Virus record (IMG/VR): IMGVR_UViG_2671180275_000010
Direction: 5' to 3' (one strand)
Length of the DNA stretch: 42,548 nucleotides
From: a virus
Taxonomy: Duplodnaviria; Heunggongvirae; Uroviricota; Caudoviricetes
Shown: one piece after another, positions 1 through 18,376 of the stretch
How positions within the stretch are numbered: the first letter of the stretch is position 1
Layout of the letters: every line of letters starts with the position of its first letter
Notes under the pieces: generated by a model
What the model was told of the DNA's origin: nothing
Seen by the model: the letters and a program-made list of their open reading frames with translations, nothing else
Databases searched by the model: none
Position numbers and translations under genes: made by a program

Positions 1-1287
1 TCAGAGTCTGGCTCTATGGGGCATGTATGGGACACTCTCTGTCAACTGCTTATTGAGTAGTTCTATTTGCCCGATATTGTTATCTTCCATCCATGCACCG
101 TAAACGTTGAATACCATTTGTGCATTTGCATGGCCCATTTGGTTTGCTATGAAGCTTGGATTCGCTCCTGCCGATAATGCCCAGCAGGCATAAGTATGCC
201 TGGACTGATAGGCTTTTCTGTGCCGCAGTCCTGCTCGCCTTAATGCAGATGCCCAGGAATCTCTGATGGAATCTGCTTTATAGTGGTGGCCGACGTGCTG
301 GCATTTTTTCACCAGTTGCGGATTAAAAACAAACGTGCATTCATGGCTTGTGCTGCGTCCGAACTCCCGCAGTTTGACATCAATTTGATATTGCTGGTCA
401 AACCTTGTCATTTCAGCCTGGCTTTTCAGGGCATCAACAGCTGGTTGAACAAGATGAATAACACGATCAGTTCCCGCCTCTGTTTTTGGTAGAGTGAACT
501 CCCCGAGTTTTGTATAATTACGACGGATAGTCATTGTTTTAGCTTTTAAATCAATATCCTCCCAGGCGAGAGCTATTAGCTCACCGTGACGAATGCCTGT
601 GTATACTGCTAAGGACCACAGGTTTTTCGTTTGTTGATGGTGACAGGCATCAATAAAGCGAATAAATTCGTCACGCGTGAGCGGATCTGGCTCTGTTCTG
701 GATCTCTTTAATGGTGTCAGCCCGTTAAATGGGTTTGACACGATATAGCCGTTATCAGCCGCAAATTGAAACATTCCTGCAATTGTCGTCATGTAGTAAT
801 TAACCGTAACTACTGACCTTCCTTTAATCGGCGTTGTTTTTCCGTTAGAGAGATTATGATACCCGGTTAACAAGTCTTTCCTGATAAACAGTAAATCTTC
901 CTTTGTTACCGACGAAGCAAGACGTTTTTCCCCTATGCGAGGAAGCATGTTTCTCACCACGGATTGATACCGACTGAATGCATTACTTCCTATCTCAATT
1001 TTCTTAAGGTCCAGCCATTTTTCCGAAAGTGCCTTAACGGTTATCTCTCTTTTTCCCAGACCAAAGTGTTTCAGGTTAGGGGAATTAGGGAACTGCGCGG
1101 CGTAGTCGAAACTCCCCATTCTGATTGCAAAACAAACGGAAGTGCGAAGTTCACCAGCGATCTTCCGGTTTTTGGCTGTGTCAGGAACACCGAGGTTTTC
1201 TCTGACACGTTTGCCATTATAGTGAAACCATATACGGAGTGATCCTCCATGGTTTTCAACGCCTGTCGGGTATGATGCGTTACTCAT
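1..1287 (-). CDS. int: Tyrosine-type site-specific integrase (lambda Int family); stop codon lies at window positions 1-3, so the att site is outside the window
   Basis: 428-aa ORF with a phage-integrase-like C-terminal catalytic region (conserved Arg/His/Tyr-containing segments); sits at the prophage end immediately upstream of an excisionase-like gene. Confidence 0.9.
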   Translation of the reverse strand: MSNASYPTGVENHGGSLRIWFHYNGKRVRENLGVPDTAKNRKIAGELRTSVCFAIRMGSFDYAAQFPNSPNLKHFGLGKREITVKALSEKWLDLKKIEIGSNAFSRYQSVVRNMLPRIGEKRLASSVTKEDLLFIRKDLLTGYHNLSNGKTTPIKGRSVVTVNYYMTTIAGMFQFAADNGYIVSNPFNGLTPLKRSRTEPDPLTRDEFIRFIDACHHQQTKNLWSLAVYTGIRHGELIALAWEDIDLKAKTMTIRRNYTKLGEFTLPKTEAGTDRVIHLVQPAVDALKSQAEMTRFDQQYQIDVKLREFGRSTSHECTFVFNPQLVKKCQHVGHHYKADSIRDSWASALRRAGLRHRKAYQSRHTYACWALSAGANPSFIANQMGHANAQMVFNVYGAWMEDNNIGQIELLNKQLTESVPYMPHRARL

Positions 1288-6941: not shown

Positions 6942-7304
6942 TTAATGACCTGCTGCGCGGAGTTTTCCGTCAGGTTCACCGGCAAGAGTCAGTAATTGTC
7001 CCTGGTCTTCCTGCAGAATAGTCAGGCGACCACCGCGATTGACATACATCGGCGTTTCGGTGGTGTCTTCTTCGGAAATTTTCCCGCGGTTAGTCGGGCG
7101 AACATATGAGAGTTTGTGTTTGATTTTCACACGGTTCTCATCAAACGGTTCGATTTCCAGGTTGAGCGAGACCTTACCTTTGGTTTTCGTGTTCATCACA
7201 CCGGAAGCGACTTCACTGAGAACAGCTCCGATTTTGGTTTCAAATACGCCGCCGTCCAGCTCCCCGATAAATGCCTGCACATCAGTACTACGTTCGCTAG
7301 CCAT
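6942..7304 (-). CDS. Hypothetical protein, first gene of leftward operon (YfdP-like by size and synteny)
   Basis: Start set at Met63 of track ORF (ATG 7302-7304) preceded by GAGGAG SD; 120 aa. Confidence 0.5.
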   Translation of the reverse strand: MASERSTDVQAFIGELDGGVFETKIGAVLSEVASGVMNTKTKGKVSLNLEIEPFDENRVKIKHKLSYVRPTNRGKISEEDTTETPMYVNRGGRLTILQEDQGQLLTLAGEPDGKLRAAGH

Positions 7305-7436
7305 TTTGCTGCTCCTCATCATATCGACCCTGCAAGGTCGGTTGGTTTCCCCACAAAACAGAGAAGAACACCTGCGGTGGCAGCCGCCCGGATGGATTGG
7401 GTTATGAGCCCGTCGTCCGGTGATGCTCTTCTCTGT

Positions 7437-7487
7437 TTTGTAAAAAGAGCGGTACCAGCCGGAAGCAAGTGTACAAACTGGTACCGC
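7437..7487 (-). terminator. Intrinsic terminator-like hairpin on the leftward transcript (10-bp stem GCGGTACCAG/CTGGTACCGC followed by U-tract), upstream of first left-operon gene
   Basis: Perfect 10-bp inverted repeat with about 19-nt loop followed on the minus strand by TCTTTTTA; a second 14-bp long-range inverted repeat (about 7354-7367 / 7427-7440) flanks it. Confidence 0.45.
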
Positions 7488-7932
7488 CAAAGCAGTGGCT
7501 GTTGTGGTGACCGGTGCTGATCTCCGGCTTGCGGTTATTTCAGACTCTCACGGGCGTTTAATTGCCCCGCCGAACAGCTCTTTTCCGCAATAGCTGCAAT
7601 GTCTTTCGCGCATCAGCCTGCGCCTTCACCACAACACTGAGAGCACTTAGCCAGTTACGGCACCACACTTTGTCGCGGTTCCATAAATGCCCTCATCGTT
7701 GCACCCTGGTCTCTTCCCAGGCGTCAAACCGAATCGCCACGCTGGTTAGGCGTCTTATCAGCATCATCATTGACTTGCACATTCCGGCTACCTGGTTTGT
7801 TTGCCCGAGCAAGGAGTGGATTGTCTCCTTTAACGTCCCCAGACCGCTAACGACGCATGTGCCATACGCCGTGTTACAACCAAATTTTGTTAGTACCTTG
7901 TTTGTTGGTCTGGAAAGAAAGATAAAATGAAG

Positions 7933-7971
7933 TTGCGCATTATGCAAGTATTTTTGTTGCGAGATATGCAA
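7933..7971. promoter_or_regulatory. OL-like operators: two TTGC-N7-GCAA sites (TTGCGCATTATGCAA, TTGCGAGATATGCAA) with a putative leftward promoter
   Basis: Same TTGC-N7-GCAA half-site pattern as the sites between cI and cro; located just beyond the cI terminator. Confidence 0.4.
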
Positions 7972-7980
7972 TTTGATGAG

Positions 7981-8005
7981 TAATGAAAAGCCACCTTCGG
8001 GTGGC
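7981..8005 (-). terminator. Intrinsic terminator downstream of cI
   Basis: GCCACC-TTCG-GGTGGC hairpin followed on the minus strand by TTTTCATT, about 20 nt after the cI stop. Confidence 0.6.
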
Positions 8006-8719: not shown

Positions 8720-8816
8720 GCGTTTATTACATTTCTTTATTGCGCGTTAAGCAAATCAACTTGCGCAAAATATTTGCGTGAAATAATATGCTCATCACGC
8801 AATATGTGGAGGTTAT
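8720..8816. promoter_or_regulatory. Divergent immunity promoter/operator region (OR with PR and PRM analogues)
   Basis: Three operator-like sites with TTGC/GCAA half-sites (TTGCGCGTTAAGCAA at about 8740-8754, CGCAAAATATTTGCG, ATGCTCATCACGCAA); putative PR -35 TTGCGC / -10 TAATAT; GGAGG SD before cro. Confidence 0.6.
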
Positions 8817-9077
8817 ATGCAATCACCATTACGGAATGTGCGTAAGGCGCACGGATTTACTTTGCAGCATGTTGCTGCGGGCGTTCAGGTCAATCCAGCG
8901 ACGCTGAGTCGTATTGAAAGACTGGAACAAATTCCATCTATCGATCTTGCAGAACGTCTGGCCAATTTTTTTAAGGGTGAAATCAGCGAAATGCAGATTC
9001 TTTATCCGGCACGTTTTCAATCTAGCCAAAACCAGAATGGGTTTAAACCACAGGAACAGGAGGTAAGCCGTGGGTAA
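8817..9077 (+). CDS. cro: Cro-like HTH regulator
   Basis: 86-aa ORF divergent from cI with HTH (FTLQHVAAGVQVNPATLSRIE). Confidence 0.7.
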   Translation: MQSPLRNVRKAHGFTLQHVAAGVQVNPATLSRIERLEQIPSIDLAERLANFFKGEISEMQILYPARFQSSQNQNGFKPQEQEVSRG

Positions 9078-9627
9078 GCATCACTGGAAAGTGGAAAAAC
9101 AACCTGAGTGGTACGTGAAAGCTGTCAGAAAAACTATCGCGGCATTGCCTGGGGGTTACGCTGAAGCTGCTGACTGGCTGGATGTAACAGAGAACGCTTT
9201 ATTCAACCGCCTTCGTGCAGATGGCGATCAGATTTTCCCGCTGGGATGGGCAATGGTTTTACAGCGTGCGGCTGGCACTCACTACATTGCGGATGCTGTC
9301 GCACAGTCTGCTGGTGGGGTGTTCGTATCGCTTCCTGAAATTGAGGCAGTAGAGAACGCCGATATAAACCAGCGCCTGCTGGAAGTCATTGAACAGATCG
9401 GCGGTTATTCCAGACAGATTCGTTCAGCAATCGAAGACGGTGTAGTGGAACCGCATGAGAAGACAGCAATTAACGACGAACTGTATCTTTCAATTTCGAA
9501 GCTCCAGGAGCATGCAGCACTGGTCTACAAAATCTTCTGCGCTCCAGAAAATAGTAACGCCCGCGAGTGTGCAGCTCCGGGCGTCGTGGCGTCGATTGCT
9601 TCTGGTTGTGGAGAAACTAACGCATGA
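9070..9627 (+). CDS. CII-like / YdaT-like regulatory protein
   Basis: 185-aa ORF with GTG start overlapping the cro stop; N-terminal HTH-like segment; position equivalent to cII/ydaT. Confidence 0.4.
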   Translation: MGKHHWKVEKQPEWYVKAVRKTIAALPGGYAEAADWLDVTENALFNRLRADGDQIFPLGWAMVLQRAAGTHYIADAVAQSAGGVFVSLPEIEAVENADINQRLLEVIEQIGGYSRQIRSAIEDGVVEPHEKTAINDELYLSISKLQEHAALVYKIFCAPENSNARECAAPGVVASIASGCGETNA

Positions 9628-9772
9628 ATAGTTTAACGGCAAATAACCGTTTGTCGCAACAGCTGGTGGTCAGCGTCGCTGAACACCTGTTGTTACGGCA
9701 TGAATGCAGATTACCAAATCACCTGGCTGTAAGTAACCACAGAGAACTTTACCTGACTGTGGGGGGCGAGTT

Positions 9773-9952
9773 GTGCAGGAACTTAACCGCTGGTTTCGTG
9801 ACGGAAGAGGGCTTTATGTCCATGTTATTCGTTGGGAGCCAGAAACACAGCGCGTTATCTATCTTCGCAAAGACTACCCGCATGAGTGCTTTAGTCCTTT
9901 GTGGAAATTCAGGCGTGATTTTGTTGAGTGTGAAGGACCACCAGCATATTGA
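9773..9952 (+). CDS. Possible small protein (59 aa) in an alternative frame of the long track ORF 9624..10775
   Basis: Frame gives protein-like sequence (...RWFRDGRGLYVHVIRWEPETQRVIYLRKDYPHECFSPLWKF...) with GTG start after a G-rich stretch; not in ORF track (under 60 aa). Confidence 0.25.
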   Translation: MQELNRWFRDGRGLYVHVIRWEPETQRVIYLRKDYPHECFSPLWKFRRDFVECEGPPAY

Positions 9953-10037
9953 TTCTGCAATTCCGGGACGTTACACTGTTCCGGCACCTTATAAAGCGGG
10001 TGCCGGGCGTGGAAACCCGAAATTCAATATAGAGCAC

Positions 10038-10060
10038 AACCGCGCTCATGCGGTTTTTTC
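10038..10060 (+). terminator. Intrinsic terminator-like hairpin (AACCGC-GCTCAT-GCGGTT + TTTTTT)
   Basis: 6-bp GC-rich stem followed by a 6-T run; lies inside the implausible N-terminal extension of the Rha ORF. Confidence 0.4.
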
Positions 10061-10229
10061 GTGTCATGAGCATCGTTACGCCCAAATTATGGTGGGGCGT
10101 GCAGGGCCAACTTCGGTTGGGCCGGGTTCTATGTTGACCGGTATTTCCACCCCTGTACGTCTCACCACCTATATGGTCGTGGAAAGCCTTGGTGGTGAGT
10201 TCATTGAATTCAACATAGGGGCTGTCACC

Positions 10230-10775
10230 ATGACTACTCTCCCAACCCAATCTCACCCTGAAATCACGATTATCAATGGTCGCGTTGTCACCACATCTCT
10301 TGCAGTAGCTAATTACTTTACTAAACGGCATGAGCGGGTTTTAGATAGAATTAGAAACCTCGAATGTTCCGCTGAATTTACTGAACACAATTTTGTGTTA
10401 AGTGAATACACCGACGCATCAGGCCGCAAACTCCCTTGTTACCAAATCACCCGCGACGGTTTTGCGTTTCTTGCTATGGGTTTCACGGGTAAACGTGCTG
10501 CCCGGTTCAAAGAGGCATACATCAATGCCTTTAACCAGATGGAAAAACTGCTTTCAAAGCCATCCACGCTGAGCGATGCCGCAGATAACGCCAGCGTGCT
10601 TTACTCCCACCTGTCGGTAATCCACAAGGTCTGGCTGCAGCAGCTTTATCCCATGTTGGCAAAAGCCGAATCCCCGCTGGCTGTAAGTCTGTATGACCGC
10701 ATCAACGACGCGGCGCTACTGGCCAGTCTCATAAATTTGTCGCTGAACCCTTCAGAGGTAAGGGGGCGCAAATGA
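10230..10775 (+). CDS. Rha-family phage regulatory protein (antirepressor-like)
   Basis: C-terminal 181 aa of track ORF 9624..10775 starting at internal ATG; ITIINGRVVTTSLAVANYFTKRHERVLDRIRNL ... YQITRDGFAFLAMGFTGKRAARFKEAYINAFNQME matches the Rha domain signature. Confidence 0.7.
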   Translation: MTTLPTQSHPEITIINGRVVTTSLAVANYFTKRHERVLDRIRNLECSAEFTEHNFVLSEYTDASGRKLPCYQITRDGFAFLAMGFTGKRAARFKEAYINAFNQMEKLLSKPSTLSDAADNASVLYSHLSVIHKVWLQQLYPMLAKAESPLAVSLYDRINDAALLASLINLSLNPSEVRGRK

Positions 10776-17570: not shown

Positions 17571-17805
17571 ACCTCACAATTCAGGCGGTTGACTGTTGTC
17601 TGGTTTGCGGGGAGTTTGTTAAAAGAAACTGGCATGGTGAATCCCCCTGTGCGGAGGGGCAATCAGCAACTGGTGTTTTGTCACCGACCCTTATCCTTTC
17701 TGTGCGGGTTCAGGTGCTGATACTGAACTCACCGGGAGGCACCCGGCACCATGCAATGGCACATAGCGCCACTCTCCAGCCCCTCTCCGGAGGGGCTTTT
17801 CTGTG
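17571..17805 (+). repeat. Late promoter/leader/terminator-like unit, copy 1 (TTGACT -35-like motif, conserved hairpins, terminal GCCCCTC-TCCG-GAGGGGC hairpin + U-tract)
   Basis: Shares three conserved blocks with copy 2, in the same order and spacing. Confidence 0.5.
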
Positions 17806-17991
17806 CCGGATACATCACAGTTTCTGGAACCTTGGGTACTACAGTATCAGTCAGGGTGCTATATTTTCAGATGTGATGAAAGCCTGTCAGCAGGCAGGGC
17901 GTATCGGAAATGACCCAGTAGAGAAAACGTTGACTCAGATACCGGTGCTGAGTTACCGGGAAACCGGCATCACATGACCGCTATCCTTCCA

Positions 17992-18055: not shown

Positions 18056-18292
18056 CTCACAATTCAGTAAGTTGACAGTTGCCTGTCAGACTGGGCATTT
18101 GTTAAAAAAATTTCGCATGGTGAATCCCCCTGAGCGGAGGGGCGACTGGTGACGGTATAATCTCTGATTATCAAAACGAGAATGACGCGGGTTTAGTGGC
18201 ACCGGGCTGAACTCACCGGGAGGCACCCGGCACCATGTGCATGATGATACAGATACGCGGCTTTAGCCCCTCTCCGGAGGGGCTTTCTTGTG
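18056..18292 (+). repeat. Late promoter/leader/terminator-like unit, copy 2 (TTGACA motif, internal TATAAT at about 18156, terminal GCCCCTC-TCCG-GAGGGGC hairpin)
   Basis: Paralogous to copy 1; immediately upstream of nanS-p and the lysis genes. Confidence 0.5.
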
Positions 18293-18295
18293 GGC

Positions 18296-18321
18296 AAAAA
18301 AAAGCCCGAGTGGGTTCGGGC
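18296..18321 (-). terminator. Minus-strand intrinsic terminator (GCCCGA-GTGGGT-TCGGGC followed by 8 U on the minus strand)
   Basis: Hairpin preceded on the plus strand by AAAAAAAA. Confidence 0.45.
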
Positions 18322-18376
18322 AACAGCATGAGATATACATTTTTATAATCGAATGGATTTTAACCAGAATTCATAA

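Follow-up and report, generated by a model that had tools for sequence, protein, structure and literature searches.

A mosaic of conserved non-coding RNA modules between pL and yfdP in an N-less lambdoid prophage

What is transcribed first from the leftward promoter, pL, of a lambdoid prophage in which no N-like gene can be recognized? The question is raised by an SfV/mEp460-type lambdoid prophage (IMG/VR record IMGVR_UViG_2671180275_000010), whose whole analysed stretch of 42,548 nucleotides (nt) is referred to here as the window. In region 7305 to 7980, between operator-like sites and the first left-operon gene, a yfdP homologue, a structured and apparently non-coding leader of about 600 nt had been predicted. 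Comparison with other phages shows this leader to be a mosaic of non-coding RNA modules common to unrelated phages, as opposed to an ordinary leader or a defunct gene. On the minus strand, pL is followed in order by an RNA that we call C, a tRNA-like element (B), an intrinsic terminator (T1) and two hairpins (H2 and H3) of the yfdP 5' untranslated region (5'UTR), as follows:

7889 to 7629, minus strand: RNA C, a conserved complex-fold RNA of ~260 nt (nhmmer match, 7889 to 7626)
7635 to 7501, minus strand: element B, a tRNA-like scaffold of 135 nt
7488 to 7441, minus strand: T1, an intrinsic terminator with a 10- to 13-bp stem and a 19-nt loop containing CUUGC, followed by UCUUUUUA
7441 to 7353, minus strand: H2, a long hairpin in the yfdP 5'UTR, with 25-nt arms (7441 to 7417 and 7377 to 7353) and a conserved interior
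7340 to 7325, minus strand: H3, a small hairpin, followed by the Shine-Dalgarno sequence GAGGAG (7317 to 7312) and the yfdP start codon (7304 to 7302)

In sensitive blastn searches, the leader split into pieces with different phage distributions. The piece at 7305 to 7489 travels with yfdP and was found in SfV, SfIV, SfII and ST64B; the piece at 7500 to 7648, corresponding to B, is 95% identical to a segment beside tRNA-Thr in one P1 isolate and to a segment of IME207; and the piece at ~7629 to 7885, corresponding to C, is 78 to 82% identical to unannotated DNA of P1, P7, D6, SJ46, phiV10, O157 typing phage 9, SPN1S and Tyrion. mEp460 and PhiR63_1 are 98 to 99% identical to the window across the region. 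The fold of the whole 616-nt leader was better than that of all 20 shuffled sequences (z = -4.5), its open reading frames (ORFs) belong to no family and its conservation tracks base pairing, all of which bears out the original prediction of a structured, non-coding region. Likewise, the leader fits the earlier suggestion of an RNA element, being a structured RNA, conserved and read leftward from pL, and comparison with other phages, proposed at the time for related prophages, turned up the shared modules C, B and T1; two conserved modules making up two-thirds of the region (7889 to 7501) had, however, been missed.

The sole long leftward frame is, as stated before, a 92-amino-acid (aa) ORF (7971 to 7693, minus strand), which has a TTG start lying within the second operator. 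Neither this ORF nor a 36-aa ORF (7668 to 7558, minus strand) matched PHROG or Pfam, and no arginine-rich, N-like protein is encoded by them, in agreement with the absence of an N-like ORF between pL and yfdP. For the plus-strand 122-aa ORF corresponding to mEp460 gp37, tblastn similarity jumps between frames -1, -2 and -3 inside individual divergent elements. Length differences among homologues of the C core, including those in variable hairpins, are not multiples of three. Since the ORFs are without families, the frames are not conserved and the substitutions compensate for base pairing, we regard the region as non-coding. It is therefore hardly credible that it encodes a protein, be it a minus-strand N or exclusion gene, decayed or atypical, or gp36/gp37 of mEp460 on the plus strand: while the 92-aa and 122-aa ORFs do exist, antisense frames are often open in homologues and GenBank records carry hypothetical proteins here, the only family matches are to annotation-derived PHROGs of unknown function. 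The decayed N or exclusion gene entertained earlier finds no support, as conservation follows pairing and the conserved blocks fall in different frames in divergent homologues. The hypothetical proteins in question, annotated in mEp460 (gp36 and gp37) and phiSTEC1575, correspond to ORFs at 7562 to 7930 (plus strand), 7116 to 7520 (plus strand) and 7319 to 7468 (minus strand) and overlap C, B, T1 and H2. Given the annotation-derived origin of their PHROG hits and the lack of conservation of the gp37 frame, these are probably spurious calls, and several GenBank entries across the region are thus probably not genes.

RNA C, a pseudoknotted family without an Rfam model

The structural elements recognized in C are the following:

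7871 to 7864 with 7858 to 7851, minus strand: helix P1
7842 to 7839 with 7795 to 7792, minus strand: helix P2
7792 to 7774, minus strand: a nearly invariant 19-mer, GGUAGCCGGAAUGUGCAAG
7753 to 7750 with 7742 to 7739, minus strand: helix P5, with loop CUAACCA
7747 to 7744 (loop) with 7730 to 7727, minus strand: pseudoknot
7721 to 7717 with 7709 to 7705, minus strand: helix P6, with loop GAAGAGA
~7701 to 7631, minus strand: P7, a long 3' hairpin

Hairpin P7 has the form CAACG-AU-GAGAGCAUU ... AGUGCUCUC-AG-CGUUG and closes a variable tip. Compensatory changes in two hairpins of C were visible in a four-way alignment, and covariation was quantified in a set of 27 diverse sequences (alignment A3) with four hand-specified helices (P1, P2, P5 and P6; 21 pairs). 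In these helices, 95.1% of the cells were paired, compared with 27 to 43% when the partners were slid, and 11 of the 21 pairs had changed on both sides, in 67 cells, a result matched by none of 500 shuffles. The pseudoknot between the P5 loop (MACC) and a downstream GGUK was paired in 100% of cases, with CG in 24 sequences and AU in 3. Covariation thus shows at least five helices and a pseudoknot in C, and the pseudoknotted core holds ~60 invariant nucleotides. The conserved G.U pairs, together with the constant co-orientation with tRNAs, indicate that the sense strand of C is the minus strand of the window, i.e., that of the pL transcript.

A search of Rfam 15, covering, among others, C4/isrK, RtT, YrlA, GOLLD, ROOL and the known ribozymes and riboswitches, returned no match in 7300 to 7990 at an E value of ≤10, nor at gathering thresholds. 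Since the same scan found isrK, C4, STnc100 and AsxR elsewhere in the window, Rfam does recognize phage small RNAs (sRNAs) in this DNA. By covariation and model search, C therefore belongs to a conserved, pseudoknotted, multihelix RNA family that has no Rfam model. Descriptions of C or B were found neither in Rfam nor in the annotation of the matched GenBank records nor in such literature as could be searched; a k-mer search of the literature found no paper with the invariant C segments and a keyword search none on the element, King et al. 2011 (on HK639 put) lying outside its scope. A preprint on Pas sRNAs was set aside as an account of the element because it covers late-region sRNAs.

Several further structural or functional candidates were dropped. 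In place of a long-range nested model of C from RNAalifold, we adopted the P1 hairpin model, whose covariation is better. For a second pseudoknot, between CUUG of the P3 loop and GCAAG of the 19-mer, the variants CCUUU, CCUUA and CCUUC are uncompensated; a pairing between the P1 loop (GCACAU) and AUGUGC shows no variation at any position except in L150, where the change is uncompensated. A resemblance to the RfaH ops element (GGCGGUAGCGUG versus GCGGGUAGCC) involves one extra base and is not kept in the subgroup of the window. By eye, GGA sites are too few for a CsrA sponge, and the core motifs of a group I intron or RNase P RNA are absent. A YCCUUGA/CUUGC motif is shared across phage types by the T1 loop (7477 to 7459), the P3 loop of C (~7815 to 7806) and locus L004 (2373 to 2359), and could be a common protein-binding site.

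C is widespread. An exact scan of IMG/VR with the 22-mer CCAGGTAGCCGGAATGTGCAAG yielded at least 120 contigs; megablast placed C in 1,331 of 5,426 complete Escherichia coli genomes, with no annotated feature beneath it among the matches listed; and the 19-mer was recovered from 22 representatives of Enterobacteriaceae species, among them Kosakonia, Citrobacter, Klebsiella, Erwinia, Buttiauxella and Phytobacter. One short contig with the 19-mer is labeled as a Bacillota metagenome-assembled genome (L151), probably as a result of mis-binning. A cI-like gene lies 100 to 1,000 nt upstream, on the same strand, in 78 of 153 C loci, and the repressors at these loci comprise the window type plus eight variants that are 37 to 100% identical to the mEp390 repressor (at least nine types). 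Another 23 loci are P1-like, with ban ~34 nt downstream, and the remaining 52 consist of 5 with only a yfdP homologue downstream and 47 that include epsilon15-like phages (Uetakevirus). In P1, C is located between trnI (tRNA-Ile) and ban, inside the ban operon, and in O157 typing phage 9, phiV10 and SPN1S it abuts tRNA-Arg; it is always on the same strand as the neighboring tRNAs.

In the window, C starts ~25 to 40 nt past the predicted pL start; in two Kosakonia prophages (L134 and L137), it begins, by eye, a few nucleotides from it. Epsilon15-like cassettes have, by eye, a conserved TTGACA promoter of their own with a palindrome, ATTACCnnnnnGGTAAT, 30 to 110 nt upstream of C; promoter and palindrome overlap in L004 (~2800 to 2870) and, upstream of C, in L128, L141, L147 and L150. 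As the palindrome is operator-like, it suggests that the unit of C, tRNA and T1 is a repressor-controlled early transcript in epsilon15-like phages too. In mEp390 (L129), a gap of ~780 nt without a credible gene (1529 to 2311) separates cI from the first left-operon gene, and nhmmer finds the C core in it (2160 to 1997), overlapped by the annotated ORF gp36, which is probably spurious. Judged by such loci, long, RNA-filled pL leaders recur in N-less lambdoid phages. A different module consisting of a hairpin and a tail (CCACCGAGCCUGAWGUGGUGAAAAGACAGGCA) was observed in SfV (L162, 1590 to 1625) and, upstream of C, in L149 and L143; it precedes either C or a P7-like/B unit in several prophages.

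C is not universal in this lineage. SfV, SfII and SfIV keep T1, H2, H3 and yfdP at 93 to 96% identity without C, and in SfV the slot behind pL is taken by orf33, with no C core. Behind orf33 come a terminator and then the P7-like hairpin and B-like element, which SfV retains along with T1, H2 and yfdP at 96% identity. The product of orf33 (98 aa) is not arginine rich and belongs to a PHROG of unknown function. With orf33 in its place, C appears as variable cargo under pL that is not indispensable to the transcription logic of the operon in this lineage.

The tRNA-like element B and the terminator T1

Element B comprises the following parts:

7635 to 7627 (GUUGUGGUG) with 7509 to 7501 (CACCACAAC), minus strand: acceptor-like stem
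7623 to 7620 with 7611 to 7608, minus strand: D-arm, with loop AGGCUGAU
~7607 to 7529, minus strand: variable insert, in place of an anticodon arm
7528 to 7524 (GCCGG) with 7514 to 7510 (CCGGU), minus strand: T-arm, with loop AGAUCAGCA

The two ends of B pair in a perfect long-range stem of 11 bp, and its centroid fold is cloverleaf-like. Its ends are kept across phages as GUUGUGGUG-AAU-GCGC-AGGCUGAU-GCGC ... GCCGG-AGAUCAGCA-CCGGY-CACCACAAC, and between them we found at least nine unrelated inserts of 40 to 150 nt. In alignment A5, the 18 pairs of the scaffold stems were 99.3% paired, versus 29 to 56% in slid controls, and 5 pairs had changed on both sides, so that acceptor, D and T arms in cloverleaf order are backed by covariation. 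B is not a tRNA itself: ARAGORN called no tRNA anywhere in the window, where the Rfam tRNA model, which does find true tRNAs in L003, L004 and L133, had no match either. It has no anticodon arm, no canonical T-loop (UUCRANY) and no 3' CCA, its 3' side being followed by variable sequence. RNase P reads the parts of a tRNA that B keeps and ignores the part that B has replaced.

At the junction occupied by B, directly after the GUUGUG of C, other phages carry a true tRNA, namely, tRNA-Arg(tct) in epsilon15-like phages and tRNA-Ile(aat) in Phytobacter prophages. The covariation of its stems and these substitutions show that B represents a family of tRNA-shaped scaffolds interchangeable with real tRNAs. 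In the Phytobacter ursingii prophages (L133 and L153), the tRNA-Ile, which has the unusual anticodon AAT, was called by both ARAGORN and Rfam ~440 nt past the C core, with a second P6-P7 unit ahead of it and T1 behind. B-like elements are also found in arrays, e.g., B-C-B in L135, and in the ban operon of P1 after tRNA-Thr, on the minus strand of L003 (AF234173; 4279 to 4382) and of L005 (OP279344; 2501 to 2638 and 2108 to 2211). One of these P1 elements overlaps the junction of the opposite-strand upl and plp ORFs, and the 95%-identical copy of B in one P1 isolate is absent from the reference isolate.

Downstream of B, the predicted hairpin with a 10-bp perfect stem and a U-tract is indeed present (7487 to 7478 with 7458 to 7449, then UCUUUUUAC) and constitutes T1. 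This hairpin has a minimum free energy (MFE) of -21.2 kcal/mol (z = -5.0), and none of 200 shuffles folded as well; its homologues have loops of 16 to 20 nt, longer than usual, which explains why a simple terminator scan missed it. A GGCGGU...ACCGCC-CUUUUUACA unit follows C plus a tRNA or B in both lambdoid and epsilon15-like contexts. More than 30 distinct sequences were collected, with YCCUUGA or CUUGC in the loop, five or six U residues and stems that differ and compensate (GGCGGUACCAG/CUGGUACCGC, GGCGGUGAUGG/CUAUCACCGCC, GGCGGUGGC/GACCACCGCC, GCGGCACC/GGUGCCGC and others). In window-type lambdoid and epsilon15-like loci, T1 starts 111 to 136 nt past the mapped end of C (115 nt in the window); in more divergent prophages it lies farther off, up to ~540 nt past C. 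Typing phage 9 has a second terminator after T1, before the next gene. The conserved stem and U-tract thus show T1 to be a terminator that closes the unit of C plus tRNA or B in very different phages.

The long inverted repeat that had been described around this hairpin exists and is larger than noted, with 25-nt arms (7441 to 7417 and 7377 to 7353) that are 84% complementary. The hairpin is not nested in it, as had been claimed; on the transcribed strand the two are adjacent, hairpin and U-tract first and the repeat, our H2, thereafter. H2 (MFE, -48.8 kcal/mol; z = -6.5) is conserved with yfdP in SfV, SfII, ST64B and Kosakonia and Phytobacter prophages. H3 alone folds no better than shuffles (z = -0.05), and an equivalent GGCGG...CCGCC hairpin stands ahead of the start codon in L131, L133 and L134. 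Both hairpins belong to the yfdP 5'UTR and are kept together with yfdP in phages of Shigella, Salmonella, Kosakonia and Phytobacter.

Promoter context and possible roles of RNA C

The immunity region around the leader has the following layout:

8817 to 9077, plus strand: cro, with a CII/CP76-family gene also on the plus strand
8719 to 8027, minus strand: cI, with its own terminator downstream
8006 to 7989, minus strand: terminator of the cI transcript (7-bp stem, GAAG loop, U-tract), bounding the pL unit upstream
7956 to 7971 (GTTGCGAGATATGCAA) and 7932 to 7947 (GTTGCGCATTATGCAA): operator-like 16-mers (OL), of a repeat family with three copies
7947 to 7919, minus strand: predicted pL, called by eye, with -35 TTGCAT (7947 to 7942), a 17-nt spacer and -10 TATCTT (7924 to 7919)
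7304 to 6942, minus strand: the yfdP homologue, first gene of the left operon

The site equivalent to the cI terminator carries a rho-independent terminator annotation in SfII and SfV. The operator-like sites of the original prediction were recovered as the two 16-mers between this terminator and C, which match a third copy at OR (8739 to 8754). Since a simple consensus scan made no call at pL, we infer the promoter from its layout, TTGCAY-17-TATCTT, which is retained in a Citrobacter locus (L148) whose cI is 94% identical; transcription would then start near 7912.

We propose that the locus is an early-expressed non-coding RNA cassette from which C is freed by tRNA-type processing, a reading that we regard as about evenly poised. 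When the repressor leaves OL, RNA polymerase would make C and then B; RNase P would cut at the 5' edge of the acceptor-like stem of B, at the junction GUUGUG^G, and the cut would release C, the 3' end of which would lie paired within hairpin P7. T1 would stop most transcripts, leaving a read-through fraction to express yfdP and the genes beyond, and the freed C may be an early accessory RNA whose target is a conserved component of the host. Because GUUGUG^G is the junction at which epsilon15-like and Phytobacter phages carry a true tRNA, it suggests that RNase P makes the 3' end of C. The nearly invariant unpaired nucleotides of C argue for a specific ligand or partner, and the fact that it is always linked to tRNAs or their mimics points to a part in tRNA-related or counter-defense biology.

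Several observations weigh against this proposal. The promoter, the start site, the RNase P cleavage and the efficiency of T1 are all features that we infer. Recognition of B by RNase P is not guaranteed, because its T-loop and D-loop are noncanonical and it has no CCA. In P1, the C core runs into the ribosome-binding site of ban with no downstream tRNA, B or T1, so that it would be a 5'UTR there rather than a freed RNA. More generally, C is never directly followed by a terminator of its own and always leads elsewhere, which fits a cis-acting leader as well. The terminal inverted repeats of B and its presence/absence polymorphism also fit a small mobile element. The case for structure in C rests on covariation, since C alone folds unremarkably (z = -1.3). 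Finally, the invariance of the 19-mer is partly a matter of ascertainment, as the first homologue sets were collected with that pattern; an independent anchor (P1 loop plus AGCGGTC), which retrieved 120 metagenome contigs with 91 unique C variants, 77 of them with an intact 19-mer, reduces this selection bias without removing it.

Antitermination of the kind exerted by the HK022 put RNAs had been suggested for the leader, and here membership in the family and function have to be separated. A covariance model (R1) was built from six put RNAs (alignment A4), namely, HK022 putL and putR and four relatives, including the annotated putL-like RNA of HK639. Run over the whole window with filters off, it gave a best match at 9629 to 9662 (E = 1.9) and none in 7300 to 7980, so the proposed structural comparison with putL and putR found no match in the leader; a blastn search with putL reached 24 phage records, none from the mEp460 group. 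The put residues that matter for the β' zinc-binding domain are G35 at the stem I/II junction, a protruding U28, the 5' A3-G7 duplex and A64 (PMC9378689). G35, U28 and the A3-G7 duplex, all essential, have no counterpart in C, in which the base after P1 is U or C, not G, and the equivalent of put stem II (GGCGGGYUCAGGAKGARCGGCAAU) is absent. Nor did nhmmer find a second, putR-like copy of C in the pR operon; the window holds one copy only. At its base, putL stem I (ACGGCG...CAUGCGUCG) has exactly the sequence found at the base of helix P1, with AGCG two bases on (L156 [HK022] 776 to 804, minus strand, versus window 7872 to 7845, minus strand). We rejected this as a sign of kinship because P1 covaries freely in the C family (CGGCA/UGCCG and CGCCA/UGGCG) and the rest of put is absent; we judge the identity to be coincidental or at most a lead. 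With a negative covariance model, a single copy and the key residues absent, C is not a member of the put family. By eye, a boxA-like UGCUC...AACAA (7811 to 7796) is present in the window, P1 and phiV10 subgroups and absent in divergent C members, and no boxB-type hairpin was identified in the leader by eye, the only way in which it was sought.

A put-like function in cis survives as a live rival. Under this explanation, C would act on the transcribing polymerase by processive antitermination or Rho protection, through an unrelated and larger fold, and pL transcription would thereby cross both the long stretch without translation and T1 to reach yfdP and the remainder of the left operon. The setting is suitable: there is no N-like ORF; C, like put, is a promoter-proximal site upstream of a terminator in an N-less lambdoid phage; in many immunity types it comes first in the pL transcript, starting almost immediately in L134 and L137, as putL does; a conserved intrinsic terminator follows it, and in typing phage 9 there are two before the next gene; more transcribed elements always lie beyond it, ban in P1 among them; and HK639, annotated with only a putL-like site, provides a precedent for a single site, to which the shared base of P1 and putL stem I may be added. 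However, besides the failure of the put model and the missing essential residues (PMC9378689), the tRNA or tRNA-like element 0 to 2 nt after C should be cut by RNase P, which would sever C from the polymerase; in P1, ~2.4 kb separate C from the promoters annotated for ban; the pR operon has no copy of C; and, since SfV, SfII and SfIV are viable with T1, H2 and yfdP but without C, read-through of T1 in those phages cannot depend on it. On balance, we think action in cis rather improbable, though well ahead of the remaining alternatives. One of these, that C is a ligand-sensing riboswitch or a ribozyme whose core binds a metabolite or catalyzes a cleavage aiding the processing of the adjoining tRNA or mRNA, appears unlikely. 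Conserved unpaired junctions and loops combined with covarying stems and a pseudoknot are typical of such RNAs, and C always adjoins RNAs that need end processing; yet no expression platform overlaps C, a tRNA or B sits between C and T1, no known ribozyme or riboswitch model matches and a conserved cleavage-site signature was not identified. Less probable again, and in our opinion very improbable, is a role at the DNA level, in which B and perhaps C would be miniature mobile elements or sites of the single-strand initiation type, with the structure mattering in DNA. While B has 9- to 11-bp terminal inverted repeats, a variable interior, several copies per replicon and a presence that differs between P1 isolates, and while the modules recombine freely between phage types, their orientation is always that of local transcription and of neighboring tRNAs, a conserved G.U pair would read as an A.C mismatch on the opposite strand, covariation extends to the internal stems of the D-arm and T-arm, which terminal-repeat transposition does not need, and real tRNA genes occupy the same junction.

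A bolder hypothesis is possible, though less probable than the cassette from which C is freed: C may be a new class of complex-fold phage RNA, either a put-independent processive antiterminator or anti-Rho element that loads onto RNA polymerase or a trans-acting inhibitor or decoy of a conserved host factor (tRNA directed or defense related), delivered by the RNase P-matured scaffold B, and would then represent a widespread, RNA-only early function of N-less lambdoid, P1 and epsilon15-like phages.

Other RNAs of the window and relation to known systems

Outside the leader, Rfam matches at gathering level identified isrK (9984 to 10060, plus strand; 61.6 bits) and C4 antisense RNA (10085 to 10172, plus strand; 82.4 bits). 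Both lie inside a 383-aa ORF (9624 to 10775), the C-terminal part of which has Ash and Rha (antirepressor-type) domains. The locus looks like an RNA-controlled antirepressor module of the P1 immI/Gifsy isrK type in the pR operon, and the ORF is probably not one real gene. Known prophage sRNAs are also present in the late, Q-proximal region, with two copies of STnc100 (17603 to 17808 and 18086 to 18295, plus strand) and AsxR (18299 to 18351, minus strand).

How N-less, put-less lambdoid phages pass their early leftward terminators becomes a directly testable question once the first transcribed item is seen to be a folded RNA. The phages concerned include many Shigella serotype-converting phages and Stx2c- and Stx2a-converting phages. 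C is an abundant family missing from Rfam, and it goes unannotated in P1 and in the roughly one in four complete E. coli genomes that carry it; B, with its interchangeable inserts, has the look of a natural tRNA scaffold, with a bearing on the maturation and stability of phage non-coding RNAs and possibly on RNA counter-defense.

At the level of RNA families, C and B are new; as a kind, they have precedents in structured phage RNAs tied to tRNAs or in early-leader RNAs. Lambda N/nut occupies the same slot, as the first function after pL, and answers to the same need to pass early terminators; here, there is no N-like ORF. The put RNAs of HK022 and HK639 resemble C in being RNAs at the start of the pL transcript of an N-less lambdoid phage, upstream of terminators, with ACGGCG...CGUCG as the lower stem of the first hairpin. 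However, put is ~74 nt long with two stems, whereas C spans ~170 to 260 nt with at least six helices and a pseudoknot, and, unlike put, C is single copy, fused to a tRNA-like element and dispensable in close relatives. The stable RNAs of the T4 tRNA cluster (species 1 and 2), prophage GOLLD and ROOL are structured phage non-coding RNAs of unknown function that are cotranscribed with tRNA genes. C shares with them its co-orientation with tRNA genes; the comparison was made through the Rfam 15 scan only, in which none of them matched. C is smaller than GOLLD and ROOL, is restricted to phages of Enterobacteriaceae and, in lambdoid phages, is under repressor control at pL. Processing handles of tRNA-like shape are familiar from MALAT1-mascRNA and from the RNase P-processed C4/CI RNAs of P1 and P4. 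B is like tRNAs and such handles in its acceptor stem stacked on a T-arm, its D-arm and its location after C, in the position of a tRNA; it is unlike tRNA and C4 in being missed by ARAGORN and by the Rfam tRNA and C4 models and in having 40 to 150 nt of variable sequence in place of the anticodon arm.

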